DNA of 24,724 nt, taken from IMG/VR virus record IMGVR_UViG_3300009154_000264, positions 1-24,724 of that record; one strand, written 5' to 3'. Origin of the DNA: a virus (lineage: Duplodnaviria; Caudoviricetes). How positions within the stretch are numbered: position 1 is the stretch's first letter; each line of letters begins with the position of its first letter. The translations under genes were made by a program, and so were the position numbers. Positions 5,736 to 23,247 of this stretch are shown here, piece after piece. Under the pieces are notes generated by a model, which searched no databases, was not told the origin of the DNA, and saw only the letters and a program-made list of their open reading frames with translations.

Positions 5736-8700
5736 ATGAGCCTACACGCACTAGCAAACCACATGGCTGCGCACGGTCGCAACGGCGATTCCATGCTTGT
5801 CCACATGACGCCCCGGGAAGTAAGCGGGCTACAGTCATTAGCAGTATCTCAAGGTAAGTCAATGACGATTAATCCACATACTGGATTACCGGAAGCAAGT
5901 TGGCTGGAAGATACGCTTAAAAAGATTCCAGCCCCAATTGCTGGCGCGGCACTTGCTTTTTTTGCTCCAGAGCTAATGGGAACGTTTGGCTCTACTTTAT
6001 TTGGTGCAGCAGAAGGCTCCGCAGCAGCAACCGCATTAGGCGCTGGCGCTACAGTTGGTGGGGTGACTGCACTAGGAACTGGCGATCTAGGCAAAGGTTT
6101 GCAAGCAGGCTTGGGCGCTTGGGGTGGGGCTGGGCTATATGGATCTTTAGCTGGCGACATAACCGGCGCTGAAGCTGGGATGGGATCTGTTGCAGATCAA
6201 TCCGCAGCTGAAAATGCAAGATTAATTAGAGCTGAAGCATCAAACCCAGAAAATATTCTATCCGGCAGGACTGCTGAAGATATTGCTGCTGAAATGCCAG
6301 CTACGGGAACTTCAGCGCTGCAAACAAAACTTGAAGCAGCCGCAGCTAATCCATTGAAATATGCCAAAGAAAATTGGAAACCAATTTTAGCGGCGTCTCT
6401 GCCTGTGTTGGCTGCAAACCAAACTACAACGCAAATGCCAGATACAAGTTCTGGCGCTGGATATATTCGCCCATATTATTTCAATCAATATACAAAACGT
6501 GTTGAAGCAAGGGCTCCGGTACTGGCATCAGAATGGGGGCAACGCTCATTCCCGACCGCCAAAGAAGGCGGCTTGATGTCTTTGGCTAAAGGCGGTATTG
6601 CAGGATACGCCCCGGGCGGTATGCCAACCGGTGATTTTTTTGATACACCAGCAGAGCCAGCAGCCTCAACAGCGCCTAAATTTACAGACCAGCAAATTCA
6701 AGATGCTATTAACACATCGCGTCAACAAGGGTTTAATAATGACCAAATCCTTCAAGGCGCGCAAGCTAATTTTGGCGTAGATGTAAGCCGTTTTTTAAAC
6801 CCAGTAACTCAGGTCACTGCCGCGCCAGCCGTATCTACAATTAATCCAGCCGCAATTAACCAGCTTGCATCAACAACTGCGCAAAATATTGGCGTTCAAA
6901 ATGCTGTGACATCTCCAATCATGGGAGGCGTTGCGCAATTGGCCCAACAAACGCTTGATCAAAACCCCAATGTAGTTACAGGAAATGCCTCTACTGCAGC
7001 AGTAGGAACTGGAATGGGAACTGGATTTGGCTCAACGACTGGCGGAATATCTGCTTTAAACCAGCAAACAAATAACTTAGCTGATCAAAACGCTGTCAAT
7101 ATCCAAACATCATTTGGAACTAACGCAAGCAATGCAAACAACGCAGGAATTGCAGCTTTAACACCAAGCGCAGATCAACAAGCACTTGCTCTTCAAGCCG
7201 CCCAAGCTGGTGTAAACGCTGGAAAAACACCAGCTCAAATTGCTGCTGAGGTAAACGCCCAGTATGGCAAAAACTTCACCGCGCAAAACATAACAGATTT
7301 TATTGCAGCCAATCGTATTGATCCGCAAGCTGGCTCTGATAAATATGTTTCTAATATTGCCGCCGCCGTTGCTGCAAACCCCAACGCTACCGCTGCACAA
7401 ATTCAAGCGGCTATGGTTGCAAATGGTTTGAATCCAGCTGATGTAGCAGCCGCTATGGAAAAGGCTGGGCTATCAAATGCCGCAGCTTATGCTGCAACTA
7501 GCCCCCAATTCCAAAGCACGCAAGCCGGTCAAACAGGATTGGCAGGTTTAAACGCCAACATTCAAGCTGCAATGGCAAATACCGCAGCAGTTAACCCAAA
7601 TGCCACAGCCGCACAAATTAGGGCTGTTTTAGCTAAATATGGCGCTAATGATGCCGACTTTAAACGCGCCATGGGAATGACTCCAGACGAGTGGGATGCA
7701 AAGTACGGCACAGGTACAGGTACGGGTACAGGTACCGTAATTAACGTTGGCACAGGAACTGGAACTGGAAAAGTAATTGTTGTTGGAACCGGAACGGGAA
7801 CCGGAACGGGAACAGGTACCGGTACAGGTACGACCAGAGGAACTGGAACTGGAACTGGAACCAGCTTAGCGCTTTTAACTGACACCAATAAAATACTGCC
7901 AATAGTTGATTTGGGCGGAGGCAATCTTGCTGTTATTAATGGAACTCAGGTTGCCACACAAACCGTCTCTACGCCAACAACTTTAAGCACAGCCAACCCG
8001 TTTGCTTTGCCAGTTGGCGTTGCAGGAAATCAAACTGCTACCATCAATCCAAATGGCACGGTGTCCATGACATCAGGGCAGCCCAATATGCCAGAGGGCG
8101 GGTATACAGGCATTCAATCCCTTGTAAATGCTTATACAAAGGGCGGAGGTAGCACTGGATATATTCCATACGCACCCAAAACAATGGCGGAATTTAACGC
8201 TAGATACGGAAACCAAACTGGCGGCTCCAAGCAGGCATATGACTACCTAATGGGTAAAGCACCATACCCAGTTATGCCGTTTACACCGCACGGTCAAGTT
8301 GCTGTACCTTATGGGCTACAAAGTGGTTTTGAGCAACCGGGGCCAAACAGCCGCTATCTCTATGATAAAAATGCTGGAACCTATAAGCCCAACCCTGACT
8401 ACGTTCCAGTAAGCTATGACAAGAATGGCAATATCCAATATGGAACTTCTCAAGGATCAATTGATTCATTCCTAGCTCAACAAGCAAGAAATCCAACCCT
8501 GACTGGTCAACAGTTGTATGACTGGATGACCACCAACAACATAACACCAGAGCAAGTTGCACAAGCGCGTGGCGTGCCATTATCGGATGTGCTTGCGCAA
8601 ATAGCTGCGTTTAAACCAAAAGATACTACAGCTACAGCTACAGCTACAACTACAGCTACAGCTACAGACACAGCCGTGGCAAAGAAAACATCTGCGGATA

Positions 8701-9140
8701 ATGGCGGTGGCTCCGGTAGCAAATCTAGTTCCGATGGAAGTTCTGGCGGCAAAGATAGCGGTGGGTATTCTGGCACCGCAGCCCGTGGCGGTTTAATGGC
8801 TGAAGGTGGAACAATTTATGTTGGCGGCATGGCTCAAGGCGGTCAAACCCAATACAACCTTGGCTCCTACTCAGATGGTGGAAGATTGTTGCGCGGCCCG
8901 GGAGATGGTGTATCCGATAGCATCCCAGCAACCATTGGTCAAAACCAACCAGCCCGCTTAGCTGACGGTGAATTTGTTGTCCCAGCCCGCATTGTTTCCG
9001 AGCTAGGCAACGGATCTACAGAATCTGGAGCCCGCAAGCTTTATCAAATGATGGCCCGAGTGCAAAGCGCTCGCGGCAAAACAGTTGGCAAGAACCGCGT
9101 AGCTACCAATACACGCGCCGACAAATATTTACCTGCATAA
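5736..9140 (+). CDS. Putative internal virion / ejection protein (1134 aa)
   Basis: Conserved-looking N-terminus (HGRNGDSMLVHMTPREV...TINPHTGLPEA), G/A-rich hydrophobic helices, a low-complexity middle and a C-terminal GPGDGVSDSIPA...ARLADGEFVVPA...GNGS domain. Located after the tail genes. Confidence 0.6.
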   Translation: MSLHALANHMAAHGRNGDSMLVHMTPREVSGLQSLAVSQGKSMTINPHTGLPEASWLEDTLKKIPAPIAGAALAFFAPELMGTFGSTLFGAAEGSAAATALGAGATVGGVTALGTGDLGKGLQAGLGAWGGAGLYGSLAGDITGAEAGMGSVADQSAAENARLIRAEASNPENILSGRTAEDIAAEMPATGTSALQTKLEAAAANPLKYAKENWKPILAASLPVLAANQTTTQMPDTSSGAGYIRPYYFNQYTKRVEARAPVLASEWGQRSFPTAKEGGLMSLAKGGIAGYAPGGMPTGDFFDTPAEPAASTAPKFTDQQIQDAINTSRQQGFNNDQILQGAQANFGVDVSRFLNPVTQVTAAPAVSTINPAAINQLASTTAQNIGVQNAVTSPIMGGVAQLAQQTLDQNPNVVTGNASTAAVGTGMGTGFGSTTGGISALNQQTNNLADQNAVNIQTSFGTNASNANNAGIAALTPSADQQALALQAAQAGVNAGKTPAQIAAEVNAQYGKNFTAQNITDFIAANRIDPQAGSDKYVSNIAAAVAANPNATAAQIQAAMVANGLNPADVAAAMEKAGLSNAAAYAATSPQFQSTQAGQTGLAGLNANIQAAMANTAAVNPNATAAQIRAVLAKYGANDADFKRAMGMTPDEWDAKYGTGTGTGTGTVINVGTGTGTGKVIVVGTGTGTGTGTGTGTGTTRGTGTGTGTSLALLTDTNKILPIVDLGGGNLAVINGTQVATQTVSTPTTLSTANPFALPVGVAGNQTATINPNGTVSMTSGQPNMPEGGYTGIQSLVNAYTKGGGSTGYIPYAPKTMAEFNARYGNQTGGSKQAYDYLMGKAPYPVMPFTPHGQVAVPYGLQSGFEQPGPNSRYLYDKNAGTYKPNPDYVPVSYDKNGNIQYGTSQGSIDSFLAQQARNPTLTGQQLYDWMTTNNITPEQVAQARGVPLSDVLAQIAAFKPKDTTATATATTTATATDTAVAKKTSADNGGGSGSKSSSDGSSGGKDSGGYSGTAARGGLMAEGGTIYVGGMAQGGQTQYNLGSYSDGGRLLRGPGDGVSDSIPATIGQNQPARLADGEFVVPARIVSELGNGSTESGARKLYQMMARVQSARGKTVGKNRVATNTRADKYLPA
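7707..7862 (+). repeat. In-frame Gly-Thr hexamer repeats (GGNACN)n
   Basis: Blocks of GGTACA, GGAACT and GGAACC/GGAACG encode four GT runs separated by VINV, KVIVV and TR. Confidence 0.9.
8625..8675 (+). repeat. In-frame (ACAGCT)n microsatellite encoding TTATATATTTATATDTA
   Basis: Directly visible: actacagctacagctacagctacaactacagctacagctacagacacagcc. Confidence 0.85.
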
Positions 9141-9149
9141 GGATAGATC

Positions 9150-10166
9150 ATGGCAGATATTCCAACTTCAATCACGCAGTATCAGACGGGCTTTGCCCCG
9201 CAACTTGCCCCTTATGCAGAAAACCTTTTGGGTCAAGCGCAAGCTTATACGGATGTAAACGCTAACCCATACATGGCGTACCAAGGAGACTTGACTGCAC
9301 AGTTCTCTCCGCTTCAACAGCAATCCTATGAAAATGCTGCTCTTATGCAGACTCAGCCCCAGTTGCAAGCAGCAACTGCCGGGGCAGGTCAAGCAATGCT
9401 TGGTGCTTTAAACACAGGTTATCAATACAACCCGTATCAAGCGCAGTCGTTTACATCGCCGGGAACTGCTCAGGCATACATGAATCCGTATGTCCAGAAC
9501 GTGATGGATGTACAGTCGCAAGCAGCCCGCCGAAACGCAGGTATAGCTGATGCCCAACAGCAAGCACAAGCAACTCAAGCAGGAGCTTTTGGCGGCGGTC
9601 GTGATGCAATCATGCGTGCTCAAGGTAATGCTAACCTCCAACAGAACCTAGCCAATATCCAAGCCACAGGTTTAAATCAAGCCTACAACCAAGGCGCTCA
9701 GCAGTTCAACACCGAACAGCAGGCAACTCAAGCCGCAGCCAATTTAAATGCACAGCAAGGACAGTTTGGTGCCGGGTTGGGATTACAAGGTTTAAACACT
9801 GCATTACAGGGTTCCAGCGCTCTTAATACATTGGGTAATAGCCAGTACAACCAGAACATGGGCATCAACCAGATGCAGAATCAGTACGGCGGTCAGCAGC
9901 AGCAGCAAGCCCAGAACATTCTTAATAATCAGTACAGCCAGTTCCAAAATTATCAAAACTATCCATATCAGCAGATGAGCTATATGAGCAACATTTTGCG
10001 TGGATTGCCGATGAACCAGCAAGGTGCAGCAATGTATCAAGCTCCTCCCTCTACATTGGGACAGGTGGCTGGTCTTGCCGCTGGAGCTAAAGCCTTTGGC
10101 GTATTGAAAAAGGGTGGTAGAGTCAAGGCTGGCTTACCCCATTTGCTTGCCAGCACAATTGGATAA
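9150..10166 (+). CDS. Putative ejection / DNA pilot protein (Q/N/A-rich)
   Basis: Q-rich helical protein with YMNPY, AGAFGG.R and a C-terminal LGQVAGLAAG hydrophobic tail. AAGGA RBS. Located within the ejection cluster. Confidence 0.6.
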   Translation: MADIPTSITQYQTGFAPQLAPYAENLLGQAQAYTDVNANPYMAYQGDLTAQFSPLQQQSYENAALMQTQPQLQAATAGAGQAMLGALNTGYQYNPYQAQSFTSPGTAQAYMNPYVQNVMDVQSQAARRNAGIADAQQQAQATQAGAFGGGRDAIMRAQGNANLQQNLANIQATGLNQAYNQGAQQFNTEQQATQAAANLNAQQGQFGAGLGLQGLNTALQGSSALNTLGNSQYNQNMGINQMQNQYGGQQQQQAQNILNNQYSQFQNYQNYPYQQMSYMSNILRGLPMNQQGAAMYQAPPSTLGQVAGLAAGAKAFGVLKKGGRVKAGLPHLLASTIG

Positions 10167-10175
10167 GGAATAAAA

Positions 10176-11966
10176 ATGTCTATCGCGTCGCTGCCATTCC
10201 CCAATTTAAACAAGCCCGTTGGGGCACCTCCAACTCAAGACCAGATGATTGCTGACTTGATCCGGATGAGCCCCGCCCAACGCGCCCAGTTTGCCCAAGA
10301 GCATATGGATGACCCTATCTCTTTATCCGCAGCCAAGTACGTGGATAACCAGATCAAGTCCCAAGCTCAAAAGATGATCCAGCCGCAAGGCCCAATGCCG
10401 CCGGTCAATCAGTCGGTGGTTCAATCTATTGGCGCTCCAATGCCGTCAACTCAGCCCATGATGGGCATGGGAAACCCAGCTCAGCAACCCGTCAACCCAA
10501 TGCAGCAGCAGAACGAAGCGCGTTTACAGCTGCCCGGGCAAGCCGCTGCGCAAGCCAATGAACTCCCCGAGAATTCTGGTATTGCTCGTTTACCTGCCAA
10601 GATGAACTTTGCTGATGGCGGCATCGTGGGATATGCAGATGGTGGCGTGGCTAGGTTTGATGTGGGTGGTTTAAACGAAGTAGCATATCAACCCGCATAT
10701 AGTCGCAGACCTAGGTACGATAACGCTGATTACATTACCGACGAACCGGATAACACAGATAACTACGGCTATCAAATGATGCCTGTGCGCGGAGAGCTTT
10801 CCGCACGTGCGCCTATTAATATAGATAATGTGTCACCAGTCTCTCCGCATCGCGGATATATTGGAACTTCTCAAGCTCCTCAAGGCCCGAGCCGTGGGTT
10901 CCAGTCAAAAAATCCAGCCGTTCAAGCTGGCGTATATCCTGAGCATATATCTTCACCGATGGGGGTTACTGCTGCACAGCCTACTGTACAACTACCCGCT
11001 CGCCCGACGCAAAATAAAACTGCGAAACAAAGCTCGTTGATGGGGCCGCCTGTAAGTGCAATGATGCAACCAGATATTCCTGCGGCTAATCCCATGAGCA
11101 TGGATCCAGCGCAGCAACAAAGATCTGCGGTAGATGCTTTGGTTGCAGCCCAGCCAACAACGCAAGATGTCCCAACAAATGCTATGCCGGAAGCTGCAAA
11201 ACCAGCGGCAAAAGACGCAAGCGCAATGACCTCTGATGACTGGTTGGCTTTAGCTGCTGGTTTATTGAGCAATAAATCTCAATATGCATCCGAAGCTCTG
11301 GGATCCGGATTGCAGTCGCTTGTATCTGGCAGAGCAGCCCGCAAAGCAGCCGAATCTCAGCAAGCACTGCAAGCAGCACAAGCAAAAGAAGCAGTTGGTA
11401 AAGGCGGCTATTACGATTCGCTTGCAGCAGTAACTGGGCCAGAGATGGCTGCTAAGATTCGTAGCCTTAATAGTGAATCCGACCGGATTGACGCAATTGT
11501 TAATATGTACCCGCAAATGTCTAACGCGCAAATTACGCAGCTATTGGCATCCGCTCGGCAAGATGAGATGCGCTCCGCAACATTACAAGCTGGACTTCCG
11601 TATGTTGGCCCAGAGGCAATGGCGCGAATTAAACTGCAAGGCGCTCAGGGTTACGGAGCAATGGCTACAGGCCGTTATCACGATACGCTGGCGCAAGAAC
11701 TGCCAATTAAGATGGCAAACATGACTATGATTGCGGAGTCCAAAGTTAATGGCATAAAAAATGCCGCCGATAGAAATCAAGGAAACTTAATGTTGGGTCA
11801 GCTTAACTCTATTATGCGCAACCCCGGCATTCCGGGAACGCCTGAGTATGTAAACAACATGGCGCGGGCAACACAACTGCATGGTGCAATTGATGCACTA
11901 GGCGCAAATAAAGAAGGTGGTGGAAAAATATTGCAATTAAACCCAGCAACTGGTCGATTGGAGTAA
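10176..11966 (+). CDS. Putative ejection / internal virion protein (596 aa)
   Basis: P/Q/M-rich disordered regions, FADGGIVGYADGG motifs and a WLALAAGLL...ALGSGL amphipathic segment. AAGGA RBS. Precedes the giant polyvalent gene. Confidence 0.55.
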   Translation: MSIASLPFPNLNKPVGAPPTQDQMIADLIRMSPAQRAQFAQEHMDDPISLSAAKYVDNQIKSQAQKMIQPQGPMPPVNQSVVQSIGAPMPSTQPMMGMGNPAQQPVNPMQQQNEARLQLPGQAAAQANELPENSGIARLPAKMNFADGGIVGYADGGVARFDVGGLNEVAYQPAYSRRPRYDNADYITDEPDNTDNYGYQMMPVRGELSARAPINIDNVSPVSPHRGYIGTSQAPQGPSRGFQSKNPAVQAGVYPEHISSPMGVTAAQPTVQLPARPTQNKTAKQSSLMGPPVSAMMQPDIPAANPMSMDPAQQQRSAVDALVAAQPTTQDVPTNAMPEAAKPAAKDASAMTSDDWLALAAGLLSNKSQYASEALGSGLQSLVSGRAARKAAESQQALQAAQAKEAVGKGGYYDSLAAVTGPEMAAKIRSLNSESDRIDAIVNMYPQMSNAQITQLLASARQDEMRSATLQAGLPYVGPEAMARIKLQGAQGYGAMATGRYHDTLAQELPIKMANMTMIAESKVNGIKNAADRNQGNLMLGQLNSIMRNPGIPGTPEYVNNMARATQLHGAIDALGANKEGGGKILQLNPATGRLE

Positions 11967-11971
11967 TTTAA

Positions 11972-14900
11972 ATGTCCTACCGCGTAGCTTTGCCGGACGG
12001 GAATATTGCTGAGTTTCCAGATGATATGCCTCACGACGAGGCTGCATCTATTATTAAACGTCAGTTTTATACACCTCAAGAAAAACCCACTTCCGGCCTT
12101 GGATCTGCGCTTAGCTCCGGCTTTCGCGGTGGAGTTGGATCTGCCGCTGAAGCTGTTGGAGAATTTTCTGGGCTTAAAGGACTTGCGGAGTTTGGAAAAA
12201 CCCAGCAGGAAAAAGCCGCCCAAACATATCAACCAACATCCGACAAAGACATTGCTGCTGCGGATCAGCGCGGCTTGTTTTCCGGAATTGGATCCCGCGC
12301 CACTCAGTTCCTAGAGCCCTATGCTCAAGCGGCAGGTAACATTACCGGTCGCTTTGGCGCACCCATGCTTGCTGGATCTGTCGCCGCTGCGCTTGCCCCA
12401 GAAGCCGTTATTGGCGGGGCAGGACTATCCGCTGTGGGACTAGGCACTGCCAGCGCTTTGGCTGGAGCAGGAGCTACTGCATTGACCGACTTGCCTATTG
12501 AGATTGGCGAGACGCAGCTTGAACGCAAGAAAGCCGGACTGCCATCAGATCCCGTAAAAGATGTGGCTTACGGTCTAGCAAAGACTGCTTTAAACACATT
12601 CACCGGGCATTTAATGAGCGGGCCTATGCGTGGCTTGCTGGGTAAAACCACCGTTGAACAGGCTGAACTGCTTGCTCCAAAGGTTCTTGCTGGAGAGCTA
12701 ACCGCAGCAGACGCAAGCAAACAACTTACCGGCTACGCGCAGAACTTCCTGCGTGGAACTGCTGAGAACGCCATCGTTGGAACTGGAATGATGGTTGGCA
12801 ACACCGCACTTAGCCGTGCAGCCACAGACCAAAGCTTGATGTCCCCCGAAGCCCTAGCCGCTTACGGAGAGTCCGCCAAAGGCGCTATTGCTTTGTCTCC
12901 TATGTTTGGTGCATACCATGCACTGGGGCAAAAAGGATTGGGCGAGGCAAAGCTTGCCAAAGATGAGGCTGACCGCAACGCCGCGCTGGCTGATATCCGC
13001 AACCAGCAAGCAGCAAACGAACAAGCTAAGCTTGAATTCCAAAAGACGCAGCCAGACTACCTTGATAAGGTGCAGTCCGACTACATGGCAGCAGAACAGC
13101 AAAAGCTGGATCTGCTTAACCAGAAACGAACAGTTGAAGCTGGATCGTTGACTGAGACAGCTGACCGTTTACACAACAAAGACATTGATACCAAAGTTAA
13201 AGAACTGCAACCAACCATTGAGTCTTTGGCTGCGGAGTTTAATAAGTACCGCCCTGCTCCTCCCAAGGTTACTGAGCCCACCAAAGTTACTGAAGCAACC
13301 CCAGAACAAGTAGCAGCTCAAACTGCCGCCGACAAGGGTGAAGCTCCGCGAGATATAGAGCCGGTTGATACCGCCGGTCTGGATAAAAACAATGATTACG
13401 TTGCAGGTCTTATCAATGATTTAAACCTGACTGTTGAGCAACGGGATGCAATTACCGGGACTAACCTGCTTTCAAAGGTTGGTAAGCTTGGTTTAAACCA
13501 AAGCGACTGGGTAGACATTGGCAGTCTCCCAACATTTGCCAAAGGCAAAGGCGGCAAAGGAACATCTATTGCTGATAGAGTTGCTGATGGTGAGTTTGAC
13601 CAGTGGCTGCCGCATGACCTTAGATCGGAAGTTATTGAAGGCGATACCGGCAAACAGCAAGAGGCAGAAGAGTTTATTAAGGATGCGCTGCGCCAACATG
13701 GATTGGGACAGCCTTTCTATGACACCGAAACCCGCGAAGCTTTGCGGATGCATGAACAAGAAATAACCCGCATAGAACAGGAACTTGACCGTGAAAGCAA
13801 CATCGACGAAATTAATGGAGAAATCCAAGACCTCGCAGACGAACTTGCCAAAGAAGAGCATGGCAATAGAGAGCCTGCGGAATTCGGGGTTGAGCCCGAA
13901 GGTGAAGCTGGCGGTGCTGCTGAGGGTGAAGGAGCGAATGCTCCAGAAGCAAAGTTAACCGAGCCAGCCGCCGAGACTGCCGCTGAACCAGCCGCTGAAC
14001 CGGAAACGTTTGAACCCAAGCCAATTGACACCAGCAAATTACAAGATGTACTTAGTCGCGCGTTACTGCCAACACTTAAACGTTTTGGCTTGGAAGATGT
14101 TGGTTTAAAGTTTATTGAGAACGCCGGTAACTTTGATGGCGAGTACACCAAGAAGCTAATCAAGATTGCATTAGACGCAGCGCGACCGCTACAGGCTTTG
14201 CGTCACGAGGCTATCCATGCTTTAAAGGACATGGGCTTCTTCACGCCCGGGCAGTGGAAGCTTCTTGAGAACCAAGCTGACAAAGTTTGGATCGACAAAT
14301 ACTTAAAGAACCGCAACGTTGACGGCAAGGCATTGAAAGAGGGCGAAGAGTCCCGCTTTGATGCGTACAGTAAGTTGTACAAGGGCGACATGGATGCTAT
14401 CCGCGAGGAAGCCATTGCAGATGCCTTTGCTGACTTTGATGCTCATGGCGCACCCAAAGGAATAATGGCAACCCTGACAGCCAAGCTACAGGACTTCTTT
14501 GCCAAAGTTAAACAAGCATTCAAATCCGGTGGCTACGAGTCCGCTGAAGATGTGTTTAAACAGATAGAAACTGGAAAGCTTACCGCAACTGCGGAGAAGC
14601 CTACCGCAACTGCGGGAGCCAAACCTAGTTTGCGTCAAGTAACAGATTTAAATGCAGAACGTGCAAGCCGCAAAGCGCTTGATCAAGAAGGTGAGTCTTT
14701 GTTTCATGACTTGCAAACATTGATTAGCCAAGGGCGCGTAACACCAGAAGATATGCAAAATTTAAAAAATAGTTTTGCTGCTGCTGATAATAAGATGCGT
14801 GCCGCTTATGAACTAAATAAAATAATTAGAAGCATTAGCCGTCGCCCTGCGCCAGACATTCAACAAACACCAGAACAAATACAAAAAATTAGCAACGCTG

Positions 14901-17900
14901 CTAATGATGCTGTATCTCAAACTGGTGAAACACAAACTAAACCAAGCTTGCGCAGCAACAGCTATGGTTTAAATGTTTTAACTGGAAATGAATCAGCTCC
15001 AGATTTTGGAAAAAAACCGGTAGTTGATGATATAGCCAAGCATTTTGATAAAAAAGTTATGGAAAAGTTTAATCGCAAACTTGACTATAACGACCCAGAA
15101 GACATAAAAATTGCCATGAAAATGGCATTAGAAGAAGTCAAGCATCAAATGGCTTCAGATCAATCGGGTCTTGATTGGTACGACGAAGACATTAAAAAAG
15201 CTTTTGCGGACACCATGAAGGTTATACCTTCTTTAAACAGCGAGCCAAAGCGGCAACTGTTTTCAATTATGGCTGGCATTTTGTCGCCTAATATCATTGC
15301 CCGAGATAATTGGTTTATTGCAGCCAAAGCTTTTGAGCATTACGAAAAAACTGGAGTCATCCCCGGCGTAAACCCAGAGACCGGCGGTCTTTGGCAGGGC
15401 GGTACACAGTCAGCCAACAAAAAGAAACAAATGGATTTCCTTAACAACATGGTGAAAGCTATGGGTGAAAAGGATGCCCTTAATTGGTTAACATCTGAAC
15501 ACACTGTCAAAGAAATTAATGATTTCCGCAAAAGGTATGGAAACATAACCAGCGGTATTGATGGCAAATTAAGCGACATAAAGCCGGGACTTTATGCTTT
15601 TGGCCCCAAGGTTGGCCCATTTGTGTCCAACATAAACGGCATCCACGATGTAACGGTTGATAAGTGGGCAACACGAACCTTTAACCGCTATTTTGGTACA
15701 ATGACCAGCCCCGAAGGAAAGATCGTTGATGCTCCAACAGAGCCTCAGCGCAGGGCTATAAAAGCTTTAATGAATGGAGTAGCTTCAGATGCAGGCATCA
15801 AAAACTATCAAGTCCAGTCAGCCCTTTGGTTCTATGAGCAAAAGCTTTTCCGCAAGTTCGGAACGGACTCTCCCTCCTACGGATTCAGCGACGGGGCAAC
15901 AAAACTCCTCCAGCAAAGAGGAGTTGGAGGCGGTGAGGCGGGTGTCCGAGCTGCTGACGAAACGCAGGCAAAGCCTAGCCTAAGAACCAACACTCCTGAG
16001 TTTAAACAGTGGTTTGGAGACAGCAAAATTGTTACTTCCCGGGACAAAGGTATGGTGTCCGGCGAAGATGTAATGAATCGGCTAAAAATTCCAGAATCTA
16101 GGCAAGATTTTTATTGGAGAAAACTTTCAGCTGATGAGCGCAATAAGCTGATGGAAGATTACCGTAACCGCGATGGGGTTGGGCAACCAAAAGTTTTGTA
16201 CCACGGTCTAGCCAAAGATACGGCATCGTTTGCCCGCAAGACCGAGCGCGGATCACCAATATTTTTAACTGACAACCCTAAGTTTGCAGAAGGCTTTTCC
16301 AAAGATAGCTTTGCTTGGATGGCTGCACACGCAGATGATGTTTTGACGCCTCAGCAACTTGAGAAGGCTAGAAAGCAAGCTATAGCTGAAATCCGCAAGG
16401 ATTACCGCCGGTCGCCAACTGCCATGAAGGAAATGGTTGATAGCTTGAAAACTGGCGAATATGCAAAGGCTACAGGCGAAGCTCAGGATTACTTGCGCAA
16501 AGCTTACAAAGATATGCTGCAAAGCGGCCCGCACATCATGCCATTGTATGTACGCGCGGAGAAGCCGTTTGACTATGAAAATCCAGCGGACGTTAAAGCC
16601 GTCTTGGATGAGATGAACAAATTAACAGATAGCTATGGATTGCCAGTCGGTAGAAGTTACGGCGGAATCAAAGTTGGCAATTGGGAATTAATTGAATCCA
16701 AGCCAGTCCAAGATGTCATTAAAAAGCTTGGCTACGATAGCTTCTACGTACAAGAAGGTGGCAACAAGAACCTAGCCGTGTACGACTCTAAACAACTTAA
16801 ATCCGCGACAGGTAACGTGGGAGCTTATGGTGAGCGTCCAGTCACAGAGGCTGAAGCTAAGCCACTAGGAATGACCGCAGAAGAAGCCAATAAAGCACAG
16901 GCTGAAGGCGATGTACGGTTGAGCTTGCGCAAAAGTGCCACGGAAATGTTTGATCCAAAAGAAGTGGATGCAAACAGCATAACTAAGTACAAGTCTAGAG
17001 AAAAATTGGTCAATATGAATATTGATGATTTTCTTAAATTGGCTGAATACACAAATAGTGAAGATTCCAATAGCAGTCAAAAAATGATTAATGCACGAAA
17101 GCGTGTAGCTGATGGAACAAAATTTAATTCTTTGCCATACCTTTTAGTTAGTGGTAACTCTGGCACATTGCAAGCGACTGGGCATGAAGGTCGACATCGC
17201 GCCAAAGTTTTAAAAGAAGCTGGTTATGAAACCATGCCCGTTGTTCTTAAATCAGATATTAGGTGGTCGGAGCAAAACAACCCAGAAAATTTTGATTACA
17301 AAAAAAATTTCCCCGAGCGCATAAAAGCTGAAAAAGGCGCAATTGATGAAAACTTTTCAATACCATTTCCTTTTACAAGAGAAGAGGCTGGGAACAATTA
17401 TGTGCAACCAGAATCTCGCAAAAGTTTGCGCAGGGTTGAAAGCGAAATCAAGAGCTTGCCCAATGGTCAAGCGATCTATGATGCCGTTAGAAAGCGCACC
17501 ACTGCACGTGAAGAACAAGGCTATGCTGAGCGTTTAATTGGCGGTCTTGGCCCAACGCCGTTCTCCTATCTGCGTCAAAAGCTGCTTTACCAATACAACC
17601 AACTGGGTGTGTACGGTAAGCGCATGGTCAAAGAAATGGGCGGTGCTGAGCGCCTTGCTGACGTTAGCGCTGAAGCTGCTGCGCTGGAATCCGATAAAGC
17701 TGCTGGCTACGTGGCTAGTGCTTTGGGTACAGGTAACCGCATGGGCGGCGTGCCGGTCTATGAAAAAGGCTACACCAAGATATCCAATTTAAACGGCACA
17801 GTCAAAGGCGTCGTGGAAATTTTTGCCCCGTTGGCTAAGTACGGCGACCCCGAGATGTACCAAGCCTACCAGTTCTGGGCAATGGCAAAGCGCGGCGAGC

Positions 17901-19990
17901 GTTTAACCAAAGAAGGCCGTGAGAAGTTTACACCGGACGAGCTGGCTCATGCAAAAGAGCTTGAGAAGAAGTACCCCGAGTTCGTGGATATCCAAAAGGA
18001 CTGGATCAAGTACAACAACGGCTTGGTCAAATATATGATCGACACCGGCGTCCTATCCAAGGAGATGGGCGCTGAGTGGATGAAGTACGCAGACTACATA
18101 CCTTTTTACCGCCAGCTTGAGGGTGAGCGTACCATCGGCCCACAGATCATGCAGAACCTGACCGGCGTTAAACCACCTAAGAAGCTAAAAGGCCCCAAGG
18201 GCGAAGAGAGCGCACCGGCTGCGGATTTCTTGGAAACAATTACCCGCAACACACAGGCTGCTATCACCTCCGGTTTAAAGAACGTAGCAGGTCAGCGCGC
18301 TATTGATGAGGCAATGTTCCTTGGACAAGCTGAGCGAGTTCATAACCCACAAGCTGCACCAAATGTTTTGGCTATCCTGCGCGAAGGAAAGGTGGAGCAT
18401 TATGTTAGCGCCGACCCGCTATTCATTGATGCAGTCAAGAGTTTAAACCTGCCAGAGCTGCCTTTCTTGAGTTTCTTGTCTAAACCGGCGGACGTACTGC
18501 GTTCTATGGTTACCAAAGATCCAGCCTTCATTATTGCCAACATGATGAAGCACTCGCTGTACACGTACTACACCAGCGGGGCAGACATTAGCCCAATCAC
18601 AGGAACCTTGAAAAACTTTGCGGATGTGATGGCTAACAAATCGCCGGAATATCAAACTCTTTTAAACGCAGGTGTTATTGGTGGCTACGAGTTCTCCAGA
18701 AACATTGAAGCAAGTTCGCAGTACTTGGCTAAGGATCTGCGTGCGAAGACCGGCACCCAAGAAGGTCTGGAAAAAGCGTTTACACCTATCACGGGAATCT
18801 GGAAGTATCTGGAACACGCAACTGAGGCTCACGACGCAGCAGTTCGTATCAGCGTTTACAAGGATGTGCTTGCCAAGACAGGCAACGAAGCCGAAGCAAT
18901 CTTCCGCGCCAACGAAGTTTTAAACTTCAACCGCAAAGGCAACTCCGCAATGGTGCGGATTGTTACCGCCGCCATACCGTTTTTAAACGCCAAGTTCCAA
19001 GGTCTGGACTTGATGTACCGTGGTCTGGTAGAGCCATCTATGGGCGGCGATGTAACAGCCCGCCAGAAAGCAGTTCAAAAGACCGGACTCATTCGTGCAG
19101 CTACCCTCATGGGATTGAGCGTTATGTACGCAGCAATGGTAACTAACGACCCAGACTATGAGAAACAGCAGCAGGAAGTCAAGGACAACAACTGGATCAT
19201 CCCCGGGCTTGGTGTTCGTATTCCAATCCCGTTTGAGCTTGGAACCCTGTTTAAAACCATGCCCGAGCATATCTATCGTTATTTCTACGGCGCTGAGGAT
19301 TTAAAAGAGTTGCAGGCCGCTGGCAAAAAAGCTCTCATGGATCTAACGTTTACACCAGTGCCACAGGTTGCTATGCCGGTGCTGGAGGCTGAGGCTAACT
19401 ATTCATTCTTCACAGGTCGCCCCATTGTGGGAGCGCACATGACTGGGATTGAGCCTAAGTTCCAAGTAGAGCCCAACACTTCCATCGTTGCTCAAAAGCT
19501 GGGACAGATGACCAACATTTCCCCGCTGAAGATTGACCATATATACCAAGGCTACACCGGAACGATGGGTATGTACCTATCGGATGTGGTGGACTCTATA
19601 TTCAACACCACCTCCAAACCAACAAACCGGTTTGAGCAAACTCCAATCATCAAGCGATTCTTGATTGATCATGAGGCCACAGGACAGGTTAGCCAGTTCT
19701 ACGACCTCAAGAACCGAGTGGAGACTGCGGTAAGGACTATCAATGACCTTAAGAGCAGCGGCAGCCCTGATCTGCTTGAGTACGCTCAAGAGCATGGCAA
19801 GGAGTATGCAATGCGCGGGCAGGTGCAAATGGTAGCCAAGAAGCTACAGGAGCTGAAGAAGCAAGCCCTGCAAATACGAACCTCAGATATGGATCCGGAT
19901 CAAAAGCGGGACTTGCTACTTGAGAACGTTCGTGCGCAAAACGCAACGGTTGGCGGCATCCGTCAGTTCAAAGAAGCTTTAGCCGAGTAG
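11972..19990 (+). CDS. Large polyvalent protein (2672 aa): membrane-type N-terminus, zincin metallopeptidase, HhH-glycosylase-like, ADP-ribosyltransferase-like, ParB-like and C-terminal LPD38-like domains
   Basis: HEAIH at 14204-14218 with downstream EEAIA; GPK (15602) and VTVDKW (15650); FKQWFGDSKIV...PKVLYHG...GYDS...QLKSATGNVG (16001-16822); GHEGRHR (17180-17200); C-terminal IPIPFELG...FFTGRPIV...SPLKIDHIYQGYTG. GGAG RBS. Confidence 0.8.
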   Translation: MSYRVALPDGNIAEFPDDMPHDEAASIIKRQFYTPQEKPTSGLGSALSSGFRGGVGSAAEAVGEFSGLKGLAEFGKTQQEKAAQTYQPTSDKDIAAADQRGLFSGIGSRATQFLEPYAQAAGNITGRFGAPMLAGSVAAALAPEAVIGGAGLSAVGLGTASALAGAGATALTDLPIEIGETQLERKKAGLPSDPVKDVAYGLAKTALNTFTGHLMSGPMRGLLGKTTVEQAELLAPKVLAGELTAADASKQLTGYAQNFLRGTAENAIVGTGMMVGNTALSRAATDQSLMSPEALAAYGESAKGAIALSPMFGAYHALGQKGLGEAKLAKDEADRNAALADIRNQQAANEQAKLEFQKTQPDYLDKVQSDYMAAEQQKLDLLNQKRTVEAGSLTETADRLHNKDIDTKVKELQPTIESLAAEFNKYRPAPPKVTEPTKVTEATPEQVAAQTAADKGEAPRDIEPVDTAGLDKNNDYVAGLINDLNLTVEQRDAITGTNLLSKVGKLGLNQSDWVDIGSLPTFAKGKGGKGTSIADRVADGEFDQWLPHDLRSEVIEGDTGKQQEAEEFIKDALRQHGLGQPFYDTETREALRMHEQEITRIEQELDRESNIDEINGEIQDLADELAKEEHGNREPAEFGVEPEGEAGGAAEGEGANAPEAKLTEPAAETAAEPAAEPETFEPKPIDTSKLQDVLSRALLPTLKRFGLEDVGLKFIENAGNFDGEYTKKLIKIALDAARPLQALRHEAIHALKDMGFFTPGQWKLLENQADKVWIDKYLKNRNVDGKALKEGEESRFDAYSKLYKGDMDAIREEAIADAFADFDAHGAPKGIMATLTAKLQDFFAKVKQAFKSGGYESAEDVFKQIETGKLTATAEKPTATAGAKPSLRQVTDLNAERASRKALDQEGESLFHDLQTLISQGRVTPEDMQNLKNSFAAADNKMRAAYELNKIIRSISRRPAPDIQQTPEQIQKISNAANDAVSQTGETQTKPSLRSNSYGLNVLTGNESAPDFGKKPVVDDIAKHFDKKVMEKFNRKLDYNDPEDIKIAMKMALEEVKHQMASDQSGLDWYDEDIKKAFADTMKVIPSLNSEPKRQLFSIMAGILSPNIIARDNWFIAAKAFEHYEKTGVIPGVNPETGGLWQGGTQSANKKKQMDFLNNMVKAMGEKDALNWLTSEHTVKEINDFRKRYGNITSGIDGKLSDIKPGLYAFGPKVGPFVSNINGIHDVTVDKWATRTFNRYFGTMTSPEGKIVDAPTEPQRRAIKALMNGVASDAGIKNYQVQSALWFYEQKLFRKFGTDSPSYGFSDGATKLLQQRGVGGGEAGVRAADETQAKPSLRTNTPEFKQWFGDSKIVTSRDKGMVSGEDVMNRLKIPESRQDFYWRKLSADERNKLMEDYRNRDGVGQPKVLYHGLAKDTASFARKTERGSPIFLTDNPKFAEGFSKDSFAWMAAHADDVLTPQQLEKARKQAIAEIRKDYRRSPTAMKEMVDSLKTGEYAKATGEAQDYLRKAYKDMLQSGPHIMPLYVRAEKPFDYENPADVKAVLDEMNKLTDSYGLPVGRSYGGIKVGNWELIESKPVQDVIKKLGYDSFYVQEGGNKNLAVYDSKQLKSATGNVGAYGERPVTEAEAKPLGMTAEEANKAQAEGDVRLSLRKSATEMFDPKEVDANSITKYKSREKLVNMNIDDFLKLAEYTNSEDSNSSQKMINARKRVADGTKFNSLPYLLVSGNSGTLQATGHEGRHRAKVLKEAGYETMPVVLKSDIRWSEQNNPENFDYKKNFPERIKAEKGAIDENFSIPFPFTREEAGNNYVQPESRKSLRRVESEIKSLPNGQAIYDAVRKRTTAREEQGYAERLIGGLGPTPFSYLRQKLLYQYNQLGVYGKRMVKEMGGAERLADVSAEAAALESDKAAGYVASALGTGNRMGGVPVYEKGYTKISNLNGTVKGVVEIFAPLAKYGDPEMYQAYQFWAMAKRGERLTKEGREKFTPDELAHAKELEKKYPEFVDIQKDWIKYNNGLVKYMIDTGVLSKEMGAEWMKYADYIPFYRQLEGERTIGPQIMQNLTGVKPPKKLKGPKGEESAPAADFLETITRNTQAAITSGLKNVAGQRAIDEAMFLGQAERVHNPQAAPNVLAILREGKVEHYVSADPLFIDAVKSLNLPELPFLSFLSKPADVLRSMVTKDPAFIIANMMKHSLYTYYTSGADISPITGTLKNFADVMANKSPEYQTLLNAGVIGGYEFSRNIEASSQYLAKDLRAKTGTQEGLEKAFTPITGIWKYLEHATEAHDAAVRISVYKDVLAKTGNEAEAIFRANEVLNFNRKGNSAMVRIVTAAIPFLNAKFQGLDLMYRGLVEPSMGGDVTARQKAVQKTGLIRAATLMGLSVMYAAMVTNDPDYEKQQQEVKDNNWIIPGLGVRIPIPFELGTLFKTMPEHIYRYFYGAEDLKELQAAGKKALMDLTFTPVPQVAMPVLEAEANYSFFTGRPIVGAHMTGIEPKFQVEPNTSIVAQKLGQMTNISPLKIDHIYQGYTGTMGMYLSDVVDSIFNTTSKPTNRFEQTPIIKRFLIDHEATGQVSQFYDLKNRVETAVRTINDLKSSGSPDLLEYAQEHGKEYAMRGQVQMVAKKLQELKKQALQIRTSDMDPDQKRDLLLENVRAQNATVGGIRQFKEALAE
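14576..14617 (+). repeat. 21-bp tandem duplication in a linker (KLTATAE/KPTATAG)
   Basis: aagcttaccgcaactgcggag followed by aagcctaccgcaactgcggga, immediately before the first KPSLR motif. Confidence 0.8.
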
Positions 19991-20914: not shown

Positions 20915-21898
20915 ATGCTAGCACCTTCTTGCACGGATGAAGAGTTTATTTCGTTATGGAATGAACATAAATCCGGAAAAATAATTGCGGAAAAATTAGG
21001 CATTACCGAACGCAGAGTGCTTTTCCGACGCCGAAAGATTGAAGATAAACAAAATATACAACTTGACTCAAGTGACCCTCGTGGCATCAAGTACCAAAAG
21101 AAAGTGGTCACCGTCAGCCACAACGTTCGTATAAACCTTGGGATGCTCAACGGAACTATTTTAGTTTTTAGCGACGCCCACTTCTGGCCCGGAATACGAA
21201 CCACTGCGTTTAAAGGATTGCTTTGGGCTATCAACAATTTAAACCCAAAAGTTGTTATCAATAATGGAGACGCATTTGATGGAGCCAGCATCAGTCGCTT
21301 TCCAAGAATTGGCTGGGATAGCAAACCTTCTTTGATCGCCGAACTCAAAGCCTGTGAAGCAAGCTTGGAGGAGATAGAGACCGCAGCCAAGAACCAAAAC
21401 AAAGGTTGCAAGTTGATCTGGACGCTTGGTAACCACGATGCGCGCTTTGAGAATGTACTTGCGAACCGTGTACCAGAATTTGCGCATATCAAAGGTTTCA
21501 CTTTAAAAGATCATTTTCAAGCATGGACGCCAGCTTGGTCTTGCTGGCCCAACGACGATATAGTTATCAAGCATAGGTGGAAGGGCGGACTTCACGCCGT
21601 TCACAACAACGCATTGCAGTCTGGAAAATCCTATGTTACTGGACATCTTCACAGTTTAAAAGTAAGCCCGTTTACTGATTTAAACGGGGTCAGGTATGGG
21701 GTAGATACCGGCACTTTAGCTGAACCAACTGGGCCGCAATTTATTGACTACCTAGAAGACTCACCTGTAAACTGGCGTAGCGGTTTTGTTGTTCTCACAT
21801 TGTGGAATGGTCATTTGCTTTGGCCCGAAGTTGTAAGTGTTTTTGATAAAAAACATATAGAGTTTCGTGGTCAAATCATTGATGTTGACTCCTTATAA
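20915..21898 (+). CDS. Calcineurin-like metallophosphoesterase with N-terminal HTH-like region
   Basis: All five motifs are present: SDAH, NGDAFD, GNHD, IKH and TGHLH. The N-terminal SGKIIAEKLGITERRV resembles an HTH. Confidence 0.88.
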   Translation: MLAPSCTDEEFISLWNEHKSGKIIAEKLGITERRVLFRRRKIEDKQNIQLDSSDPRGIKYQKKVVTVSHNVRINLGMLNGTILVFSDAHFWPGIRTTAFKGLLWAINNLNPKVVINNGDAFDGASISRFPRIGWDSKPSLIAELKACEASLEEIETAAKNQNKGCKLIWTLGNHDARFENVLANRVPEFAHIKGFTLKDHFQAWTPAWSCWPNDDIVIKHRWKGGLHAVHNNALQSGKSYVTGHLHSLKVSPFTDLNGVRYGVDTGTLAEPTGPQFIDYLEDSPVNWRSGFVVLTLWNGHLLWPEVVSVFDKKHIEFRGQIIDVDSL

Positions 21899-21973: not shown

Positions 21974-22264
21974 ATGGACTTTCGTATGACTATTAATTTT
22001 GGTTTTGGTGAGAGCATTGAGTTCTCTACTGATGAATTTTGGAAGCTGGCAGTGTTGGCTGCTTTTGTTGAGCGCGTTGAATCCATTGATGATGAAGAAG
22101 ATTTTGATGAAGTAGAGGACGATGAATCAGAGGACGATGAAGAGTACATCTTTGATGAGAACGATGTGGCTCACTGGTACGATGAAGAGAATGATGCTTG
22201 GTACTTCTACGACGAAGAGACCGACGACTGGTACCTGTGCGAGGAAGAAGAGGACGCTGAGTAA
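21974..22264 (+). CDS. Hyper-acidic small protein with aromatic/acidic repeats (candidate nucleic-acid mimic)
   Basis: By hand count, 41 of 96 residues are D/E versus 3 K/R. Repeats YIFDENDVAH/WYDEENDAWY/FYDEETDDWY. Strong AAGGGGTG RBS and a terminator downstream. Confidence 0.75.
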   Translation: MDFRMTINFGFGESIEFSTDEFWKLAVLAAFVERVESIDDEEDFDEVEDDESEDDEEYIFDENDVAHWYDEENDAWYFYDEETDDWYLCEEEEDAE

Positions 22265-22479: not shown

Positions 22480-23247
22480 TTAGTCTCTCCATTCATCGGT
22501 GTTCATTATCCTAGCCATCTTAAAAAATACGCTTTCATCATTGAGCGCGTAGGCTTCCTTGGCTTTGGACACTGCAATAAAATCCCGCAGTAAAGCCAAG
22601 TTCATTTCATGTTTGCTTGGGAAAATTGTTTTGTGATATACGCCTTCTTTTGGCTGGGACAGAACAATTGACTTCGGGCTTTCGTCAAGCCAGCGGCGGA
22701 CAAGCTTGGCATCATCTGAAACAATCAAAGCAATTGGTGCCAGCTTTCTTATGGTGTCCCATTGGTCTTGTGTAAACGTTCTGTCGTTTCCACGCAAATG
22801 TACAACAGGCATATCTGAGTCAGTTACCGGTATCTCTTTGGCTATATTTTTATTAAGTCGCAAATGCCTACATAACTCAGGCATATCGTATTCTCTATAG
22901 CCAATTCCACATTGAACCCAAACACCTTCGTAGTGCCTATCCTTTTTGGGATCAAATTCCAACTGCTCTTTAATGTCGTAAACCCATTCATTGGATGGCA
23001 AAATTAATTTGTGTTTCCAAAAATGAGGATACACATCAAGCTCTTCATCAATGACTGCAACGTTTGATATGTTTGGCAAATCAACCCAATGGAAATATTT
23101 GTAAAACCCATCTCTCCAAATGGTGTCAGTCCAATCCACATAAAGCGTTCTATTGAAAAGCTTTGCCATAGACAGGCAGTATGACAAACATTGCAAGCGG
23201 TCAGCAAATCCTTCCCAGCCTTTGCTTATTAAATACTTTGGCTTCAC
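22480..23247 (-). CDS. Glycosyltransferase, fucosyltransferase-like (NodZ/GT23 or GT11-type GT-B fold)
   Basis: GWEGFADRL...A...NRTLYVDW, VHLRGND, IVSDD and LRDF..VS match the GDP-sugar-binding motifs of this clan. GTG start with AGGAG RBS. Confidence 0.7.
   Translation of the reverse strand: MKPKYLISKGWEGFADRLQCLSYCLSMAKLFNRTLYVDWTDTIWRDGFYKYFHWVDLPNISNVAVIDEELDVYPHFWKHKLILPSNEWVYDIKEQLEFDPKKDRHYEGVWVQCGIGYREYDMPELCRHLRLNKNIAKEIPVTDSDMPVVHLRGNDRTFTQDQWDTIRKLAPIALIVSDDAKLVRRWLDESPKSIVLSQPKEGVYHKTIFPSKHEMNLALLRDFIAVSKAKEAYALNDESVFFKMARIMNTDEWRD

Follow-up and report, generated by a model that had tools for sequence, protein, structure and literature searches.

How can a single phage protein carry a row of unrelated domains that are exchanged from relative to relative, and why does nearly the same pentapeptide stand at every border between them? 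This question is raised by a 24,724-base stretch of Caudoviricetes DNA (hereafter the window, which is the entire IMG/VR record IMGVR_UViG_3300009154_000264, with an estimated completeness of 41%), in which the open reading frame (ORF) 11972-19990 encodes a giant protein of 2672 amino acids (aa). Our reading, to which we give a probability of roughly 60%, is that this is a phage polyvalent ejection protein whose exchangeable domains (cassettes) are cut apart at short junction tags by the protein's own HExxH metallopeptidase, and that the DNA of the tags also acts as a crossover point. The ORF belongs to the phage polyvalent proteins by testable features, i.e., unrelated domains in one chain, an ART-PolyVal (ADP-ribosyltransferase-like) domain together with LPD38, and a place among virion genes. 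That the giant protein is packaged and ejected is likely, judging from this gene context and from relatives in phages phi24B and PTXU04. Its layout in window coordinates is as follows.

11972..19990, + strand: giant polyvalent protein, 2672 aa, cysteine-free, the last of four large virion-type genes
11972..14056, + strand: N-terminal region (aa 1-695), with no family match and no strict tag motif (defined below), and an Ala/Gly-rich hydrophobic stretch at aa 137-155
14057..14587, + strand: predicted metallopeptidase (MPTase-type) domain (aa 696-872), with HEAIH at aa 745-749 (14204-14218) and the third-ligand candidate E812/E813 in EEAIA at aa 812-816 (14405-14419)
14621..14635, + strand: junction tag 1, KPSLR (aa 884-888)
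14636..14938, + strand: cassette 1, ~100 aa, without assignment
14939..14953, + strand: junction tag 2, KPSLR (aa 990-994)
14954..15970, + strand: cassette 2, DUF7178-like, likely of the HhH-GPD DNA glycosylase/lyase superfamily
15971..15985, + strand: junction tag 3, KPSLR (aa 1334-1338)
15986..16915, + strand: cassette 3, ART-PolyVal ADP-ribosyltransferase-like domain (PF18760) with inserts
16916..16930, + strand: junction tag 4, RLSLR (aa 1649-1653)
16931..17416, + strand: cassette 4, ~160 aa, possibly ParB/Srx-like, with GHEGRHR at aa 1737-1743
17417..17431, + strand: junction tag 5, RKSLR (aa 1816-1820)
17432..19990, + strand: conserved C-terminal body, ~850 aa, with LPD38 at aa 2393-2560 and a hydrophobic stretch at aa 2372-2390

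The initial annotation had described five [KR]xSLR pentapeptides in differing codons, absent from the rest of the protein, with an HEAIH...EEAIA domain just upstream of the first; all of this is present as described, and the 2672 residues contain exactly five SLR tripeptides, every one within [KR]xSLR. By chance, 0.065 copies would be expected (at most three in 2000 shuffles), and five copies of any [KR]x-tripeptide were reached in one of 2000 shuffles. To extend the comparison, a search with the body yielded 1332 proteins among 7995 scored candidates, and the best 120 of the 1332 (one being the window's own entry) were analysed with the query added. The whole peptidase domain is carried by 110 of these 121 sequences (the query plus 109 relatives). 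Of the 11 set aside, one is the truncated entry of the window itself, one is cut short within the peptidase, and nine lack a peptidase match; these nine relatives start inside the cargo and were treated as truncated rather than accepted as real peptidase-less forms. Across the 110 sequences, the cargo zone (peptidase to body) totals 127,576 aa and contains 331 copies of the strict motif [KR]xS[LIVM][RK], versus a shuffled mean of 30 and maximum of 42; the N-terminal regions (88,321 aa) contain 13, the bodies (93,705 aa) 5, and the peptidase domains 0. A relaxed form, used for the tags after the peptidase and before the body, stands before the body in 109/110 and after the peptidase in 104/110, the latter count including a few chance matches to a loose pattern. 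The profile over 341 distinct sites (K60/R40; Y, L, K, F, A or P; S94/A6; L87; R72/K15) is partly fixed by the collecting patterns, and variants such as RYQIR, RYNLR, and RYALS were seen in the wider set. Even the cargo-free relatives P0375 and P0384 retain a tag between peptidase and body. Residues upstream of the tags are poor in hydrophobics, and tags 1 and 3, the two covered by structural models, fall in low-confidence linkers.

The placement of the motifs at domain borders also holds when the borders are taken without the motif, from BLAST ends and from close relatives. Among cargo zones there are 4487 internal BLAST ends (which are not independent), 45% of them no more than 5 aa away from a motif versus 2.6% at random; at least two BLAST ends fall within 10 aa of 178 out of 216 internal motifs, versus 21 at random. 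Outside the cargo, the relatives P0002 and P0003 match the query at 93-99% identity, and within it their joins fall at the tags: P0002 is without cassettes 2 and 4 and has two others, and P0003 is without cassettes 1, 2, and 4 and retains a 24-aa spacer between two KPSLR. Cassettes 1 to 4 are present in 1, 13, 24, and 12 of the 109 relatives, respectively (at least 45% identity), the tag moves together with the end of each cassette, and domains added in relatives include RelA/SpoT, GP88, DUF7178, and ddrB-ParB. When 182 partly redundant sequences were split at strict tags, 534 modules resulted, which fell into 66 clusters and 106 architectures; missed variant tags merged some of the modules. 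A survey of homologues had been suggested for module gain or loss at the motifs and for intact HExxH; it placed the joins at tags and found HExxH and the downstream Glu intact in 110/110 peptidase-bearing sequences. The modular reading is thus strongly supported by gain and loss at the motifs, by the linker placement of tags 1 and 3, and by stand-alone ARTs that mostly lack the tag.

The peptidase end of the row is equally constant. Alignment columns H53, E54, H57, E120, and E121 are invariant in 60 sequences, and HExxH is present in 141 of 142 further 50%-identity representatives, the remaining one starting downstream of HExxH; these representatives came from the best 150 of 2093 matches (E 0.001) and were picked by the peptidase profile, hence biased. 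A model built from 60 sequences (mean predicted local distance difference test, pLDDT, 82.8) places HExxH on one helix and the Glu pair on another, and gives the linker to tag 1 a pLDDT below 50-55, and its BFVD matches are other phage giant proteins. The putative zincin assignment is based on the HExxH/Glu motif and on the description by Iyer and colleagues (PMC5512222). When the peptidase was searched with tblastn against a set of 50,697 records from cultured phages, no match was found, so the query's peptidase clade is without a cultured member in those records. One relative of 4460 aa, P0367, has four matches to the peptidase profile amid many HTH-like repeats.

We propose that a variable row of cassettes, each ending in [KR]-x-S-[LIVM]-[RK], lies between the predicted HExxH peptidase and the LPD38 body, and that the peptidase would cut at each tag, either within the head or once the protein has been ejected, releasing itself, the cassettes, and the body. 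The cut would most likely fall at S|L or x|S, because position four is a conserved aliphatic residue and stand-alone ARTs stop about there; a thermolysin-like cut before Leu would fit this order of a small and then an aliphatic residue. Cuts at S|L would yield pieces of 94, 12, 38, 36, 19, and 95 kDa. Through their short DNA similarity, the tags probably also serve as in-frame crossover points, so that an incoming cassette would bring its own release site.

Several results weigh against this reading. To begin with, tag cleavage by the resident HExxH domain is a prediction from sequence, and structural searches lent it little support: no Pfam peptidase family matched the HExxH domain above cut-off, a Foldseek search of the peptidase model against the Protein Data Bank (PDB) gave no match at E 0.001 and no solved peptidase, and a VIA fold search returned no peptidase, its best match being the AdnA helicase-nuclease (Z 5.3, rmsd 4.7, 111 aligned), which we rejected as a relationship and took as a common helical arrangement. 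The model also has helices (pLDDT 64-72) where zincins carry a three-stranded sheet before the HExxH helix. PDB sequence searches with the queries A2, A3, and A4 returned nothing meaningful. No catalytically dead HExxH relative was found in the 110-sequence set, the 142 representatives, or a second, 120-member family (LPD22, see below). Finally, part of the tag conservation is explained by recombination or common descent, both of which fit, and known proteins, distant relatives, and the second family provide further points against it, given below.

The lack of a zincin fold match in these searches would suit another protease (a phage prohead protease encoded beyond the 41%-complete record, or one of the host's) as the enzyme that cuts the tags, with the HExxH domain acting elsewhere, e.g., on the cell wall or a host protein. 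Consistent with this, gp273 of phage Tunturi_5 lacks HExxH yet has an ASLR following its ART, and the authors of a study of the Stx phage phi24B propose, in the available text, that the metallopeptidase of gp47 has a role in peptidoglycan breakdown (10.64898/2026.04.10.717836). We nevertheless regard such an enzyme as unlikely, because the tag type switches with the resident peptidase clade (see below) and because the tag is scarce outside the cargo: it is in none of the three large cysteine-free proteins encoded upstream, is absent from all 11 other window ORFs checked, and is rare in the upstream ORFs of relatives (15 in 160,963 aa). For a head protease, one would expect further substrates in the virion.

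Other points against self-cleavage come from proteins that stay whole. N4 vRNAP, ArdC, and TraC1 have MPTase domains and, according to the available text of PMC5512222, are packaged or transferred uncut. The tag could likewise be an uncut binding or handling signal, i.e., a docking strand for the HExxH domain, a chaperone, or the ejection channel, with packaging or threading module by module; N4 vRNAP has an HExxH domain yet is packaged whole, peptide-level conservation in flexible linkers suits docking equally, and the upstream ejection proteins bear a different repeated tag (xGG). We hold this to be quite unlikely, given that HExxH and the third-ligand Glu never decay (110/110, 120/120, and 141/142) and that stand-alone ARTs end where the tag would be, like a cut product.

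Conservation at the DNA level is also relevant, since the initial annotation had taken the differing codons as a sign that selection acts on the peptide and not on the DNA. Among 207 distinct DNA contexts (81 loci), 6/6 Leu, 6/6 Arg, and 5/6 Ser codons are used, with 28 TCN serines, and the commonest SLR 9-mer accounts for 35/207. A strict DNA recombination site with an integron-like conserved border was rejected on this synonymous variation at all positions and on the finding of no tag-linking repeat among the 20 repeat families shown of 46. Counting the other way, Ser is AGY in 179/207 contexts (67 expected), SLR 9-mer pairs are identical in 7.3% of cases versus 0.8% under free choice and 2.2% given AGY, and identical SLR 9-mers occur in 36/225 within-protein pairs. 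The peptide part of the claim stands in that all Leu and Arg codons are used, and the exclusion of DNA does not: because SLR 9-mers are identical 3-10 times too often for free codon choice, tag DNA is probably also active in cassette exchange. Carried further, the tag might be the mere footprint of a DNA crossover hotspot, providing short homology for in-frame swaps by phage recombinases and having no peptide role. The coincidence of swaps with tags and the excess likeness of the 9-mers fit this, as does the greater likeness of tags within one protein than across proteins, which is in excess at two of three positions (x position 0.22 vs 0.17, 4/2000 shuffles; last position 0.71 vs 0.63, 1/2000). 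We consider a footprint improbable, the last in rank of the rivals weighed here, in view of the codon spread and repeat families just described and because, in another peptidase clade, the tag on homologous cassettes is a different one.

Whether tag type follows the peptidase clade was assessed, as an indirect test, on the ART cassette, which the clades share. In the query clade, tag xSL[RK] (the A tag) lies within 14 residues in 77/87 distinct ART tails, and 7 of the other 10 are of a longer tail type. The second family comprises 120 relatives of Octadecabacter virus BD1 gp16 (LPD22/HESGH clade; P0121-P0240, BD1 locus L111:4986-13946), which have HExxH in 120/120 and cargo upstream of the peptidase; it shares cassettes with the query family and uses the tag [ILMF][FY]Q. 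Its ART tails carry this Gln tag in 37/41, the other four having Gln by eye, and the A tag in 0 (one row was dropped, having no anchor), while a loose Gln tag stands before the peptidase in 98/120 members. Here too lies a counterpoint to self-cleavage and exchange at tags: breakpoints of the LPD22/Gln clade fall at tags in 4.8% versus 1.0%, the whole-protein enrichment is 1.9-fold, and several shared cassettes are untagged.

We also compared 11 ART-bearing ORFs from named phage records. In F116, USP_18, Dartukuta, Dfl-JY45, and a crAssphage, the ART ends in [FY]S[RFS] and HExxH or HExxxH is present (Dfl-JY45, at first a candidate peptidase-less case, was rejected as such on an HExxxH at aa 1521); Jess A and BD1 combine HExxH with the Gln tag; zth2-2 has the Gln tag, with HExxH not found in the part of the protein covered; two short ART ORFs end at, or shortly past, the tag position; and the eleventh is the Tunturi_5 gp273 discussed above. 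In this last protein (L108:5786-10255), a multi-domain one with ART, GNAT, and NUDIX, K[KSV]A[AST]-like linkers recur by eye. The Dolichospermum phage Dfl-JY45 protein (L109:6521-13684, 2387 aa) carries F[SAY]R tags, about six in all, at the ends of its modules, one of them 20 aa before the stop, and F116 gp60 (L103:6411-11360) has two HExxH domains, FSR tags flanking its ART, and an open frame ~150 codons upstream of the annotated start.

Among 120 short ART proteins, 9 were without a recognisable tail, 22 of the other 111 end no more than 10 residues past the anchor, and 4 of the remaining 89 have the A tag; many are on short contigs and may be fragments. That the tag is part of the ART fold was rejected, because short ART proteins stop at the tag position or mostly lack the tag. 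More distantly, 11 cultured LPD38 proteins have repeated xSLR in none, which again speaks against our reading; seven have an HExxH-type motif, some with a single candidate tag after it. Of four QYS in the PTXU04 protein, one is at an obvious joint, and the other three were rejected as junction tags for want of such a position.

These comparisons could reflect a clade-specific peptide code, in which metallopeptidases read xSL[RK] here, a Gln tag in the LPD22 family, and [FY]SR in F116-like proteins, with shared cassettes re-tagged between clades and tag DNA as the crossover point; we put this at somewhat less than an even chance. If it is true, phages would have a self-cutting, protein-level cassette array that delivers changing enzyme sets into the host, and the boundaries of dozens of phage effectors not yet described would be given by the tags alone.

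Self-processing chains with exchangeable parts are familiar elsewhere. RNA-virus polyproteins have an embedded 3C-type protease and MARTX toxins have their own cysteine protease domain, and cleavage is proven in both. The query would resemble them, if cleavage by its own peptidase holds, in being one chain with an internal protease, a short repeated inter-domain site, and cassette exchange between strains; it differs in having unrelated sequence and a predicted metallopeptidase, in being a likely ejection protein of a double-stranded DNA bacteriophage, and in that its cleavage is predicted.

Closer to the query, Iyer, Burroughs, Anand, de Souza, and Aravind defined the polyvalent class in 2017 (PMC5512222), proposed autoproteolytic release of domains by MPTase, and cited processed DdrB of phage P1; in its available text, supplements aside, no recognition sequence is named for MPTase processing. 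Polyvalent proteins as described there are, like the query, large and multi-domain, in a virion-gene setting, with HExxH and Glu, ART-PolyVal, and LPD38, and the query is unlike that description in that a defined tag ends each cassette, marks the swap points, and varies by peptidase clade. P1 DdrB is likewise a virion protein with an MPTase domain, reported as processed, for which the available texts of PMC5512222 and PMC9024508 give neither cut site nor enzyme. P1 DarA is a virion protein as well, and coliphage N4 vRNAP is a virion protein with an HExxH domain, packaged uncut (PMC13434306); for DdrB, DarA, and N4 vRNAP, no repeated tag is reported in the texts available. The phi24B gp47 protein, compared by description, has an LPD38 body and a metallopeptidase motif like the query and, in the available text of the same study (10.64898/2026.04.10.717836), is abundant in virions, absent from the cryo-electron microscopy model, and proposed as an ejection protein. 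PTXU04_00025 (gp25 of coliphage PTXU04) is needed for infection according to the available text of a CRISPRi-ART preprint (10.1101/2023.09.18.558157); its LPD38 body is 28% identical to that of the query, and unlike the query it has an HExxxH domain directly before the body, one candidate tag (MQYSA), and no tagged cassette row. The literature compared also includes the parts available of an NAD/ADPr survey (PMC9503650), and searches found no paper on junction tags, most subscription papers being beyond their coverage. What is new here is the tagged, exchangeable cassette row, while the polyvalent class and the prediction of MPTase processing were already known. To that prediction, made in 2017, the tag adds exact sites, a putative catalytic residue (E746), and fragment sizes. 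If self-cleavage at the tags is true, it would add a protease family with short target sites and provide a natural, modular chassis for delivery. The tags also give borders for ~66 cassette clusters (182 sequences), mostly unannotated and rapidly exchanged, which are candidates for counter-defence or host-takeover screens.

As to the cassettes themselves, the initial annotation had proposed an ART-like module 3 and an LPD38-type C-terminus, and both are above Pfam cut-offs: the body matches LPD38 at E 2.5e-35, and cassette 3 matches PF18760 (ART-PolyVal, Tox-ART-HYD2 clade) at E 3.5e-14 to 3.4e-16 (60.7 bits vs a cut-off of 31.2). Its H-Y-D site was located by eye, with H1411 in YHG and the strand-2 Tyr position apparently Phe. 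The suggestion that module 2 is HhH-like is partly borne out by motifs and weak fold matches. The Pfam match to DUF7178 (E 1.1e-4) is under cut-off, with the Atlas also giving DUF7178, and the model (mean pLDDT 84.2, with tag 3 below 50 at its end) has AGOG/OGG glycosylases as top Foldseek matches at E 0.025 and weaker (probability 0.93-0.99), none at E 0.001. The motifs FGPK[VLI]G and T[VM]DxWxxR are kept in 24/24; in the query, we take FGPKVG (K1213) to be the hairpin Lys motif and VTVDKW (D1230) to contain the catalytic Asp of HhH-GPD. For the ParB-like assignment of module 4, a lead comes from its Atlas cluster, with ParB_N on 26% of members and 144 shared features, and from GHEGRHR, invariant in 5/5, and the assignment gained no Pfam or PDB match. 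Cassette 1 received no Pfam assignment.

The rest of the window contains tail and lysis genes, a virion structural protein (phrog_3287), an endolysin, and three large cysteine-free genes beside ORF 11972-19990.

5736..11966, + strand: three cysteine-free virion-type genes of 1134, 338, and 596 aa, upstream of ORF 11972-19990

The 338-aa protein matches the DNA ejection protein family phrog_4287 (E 5e-8). The different repeated tag of these three proteins, [FYMLA][AK]xGG, is present in 6, 1, and 2 copies (5736-9140, 9150-10166, and 10176-11966, respectively), and its stricter form in 214 copies in the 160,963 aa of upstream ORFs from related loci. The 1134-aa protein (5736-9140) has long (GT)n plus Thr/Ala- and Gly/Ser-rich low-complexity tracts around aa 650-710 and 960-1010. 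Downstream of the giant gene, a metallophosphoesterase gene (20915-21898) and a very acidic 96-aa ORF (21974-22264) are on the + strand within an otherwise minus-strand block, and a 255-aa protein (22480-23247, - strand) has a weak NodZ-like (fucosyltransferase-type) match at E 0.025, under cut-off.

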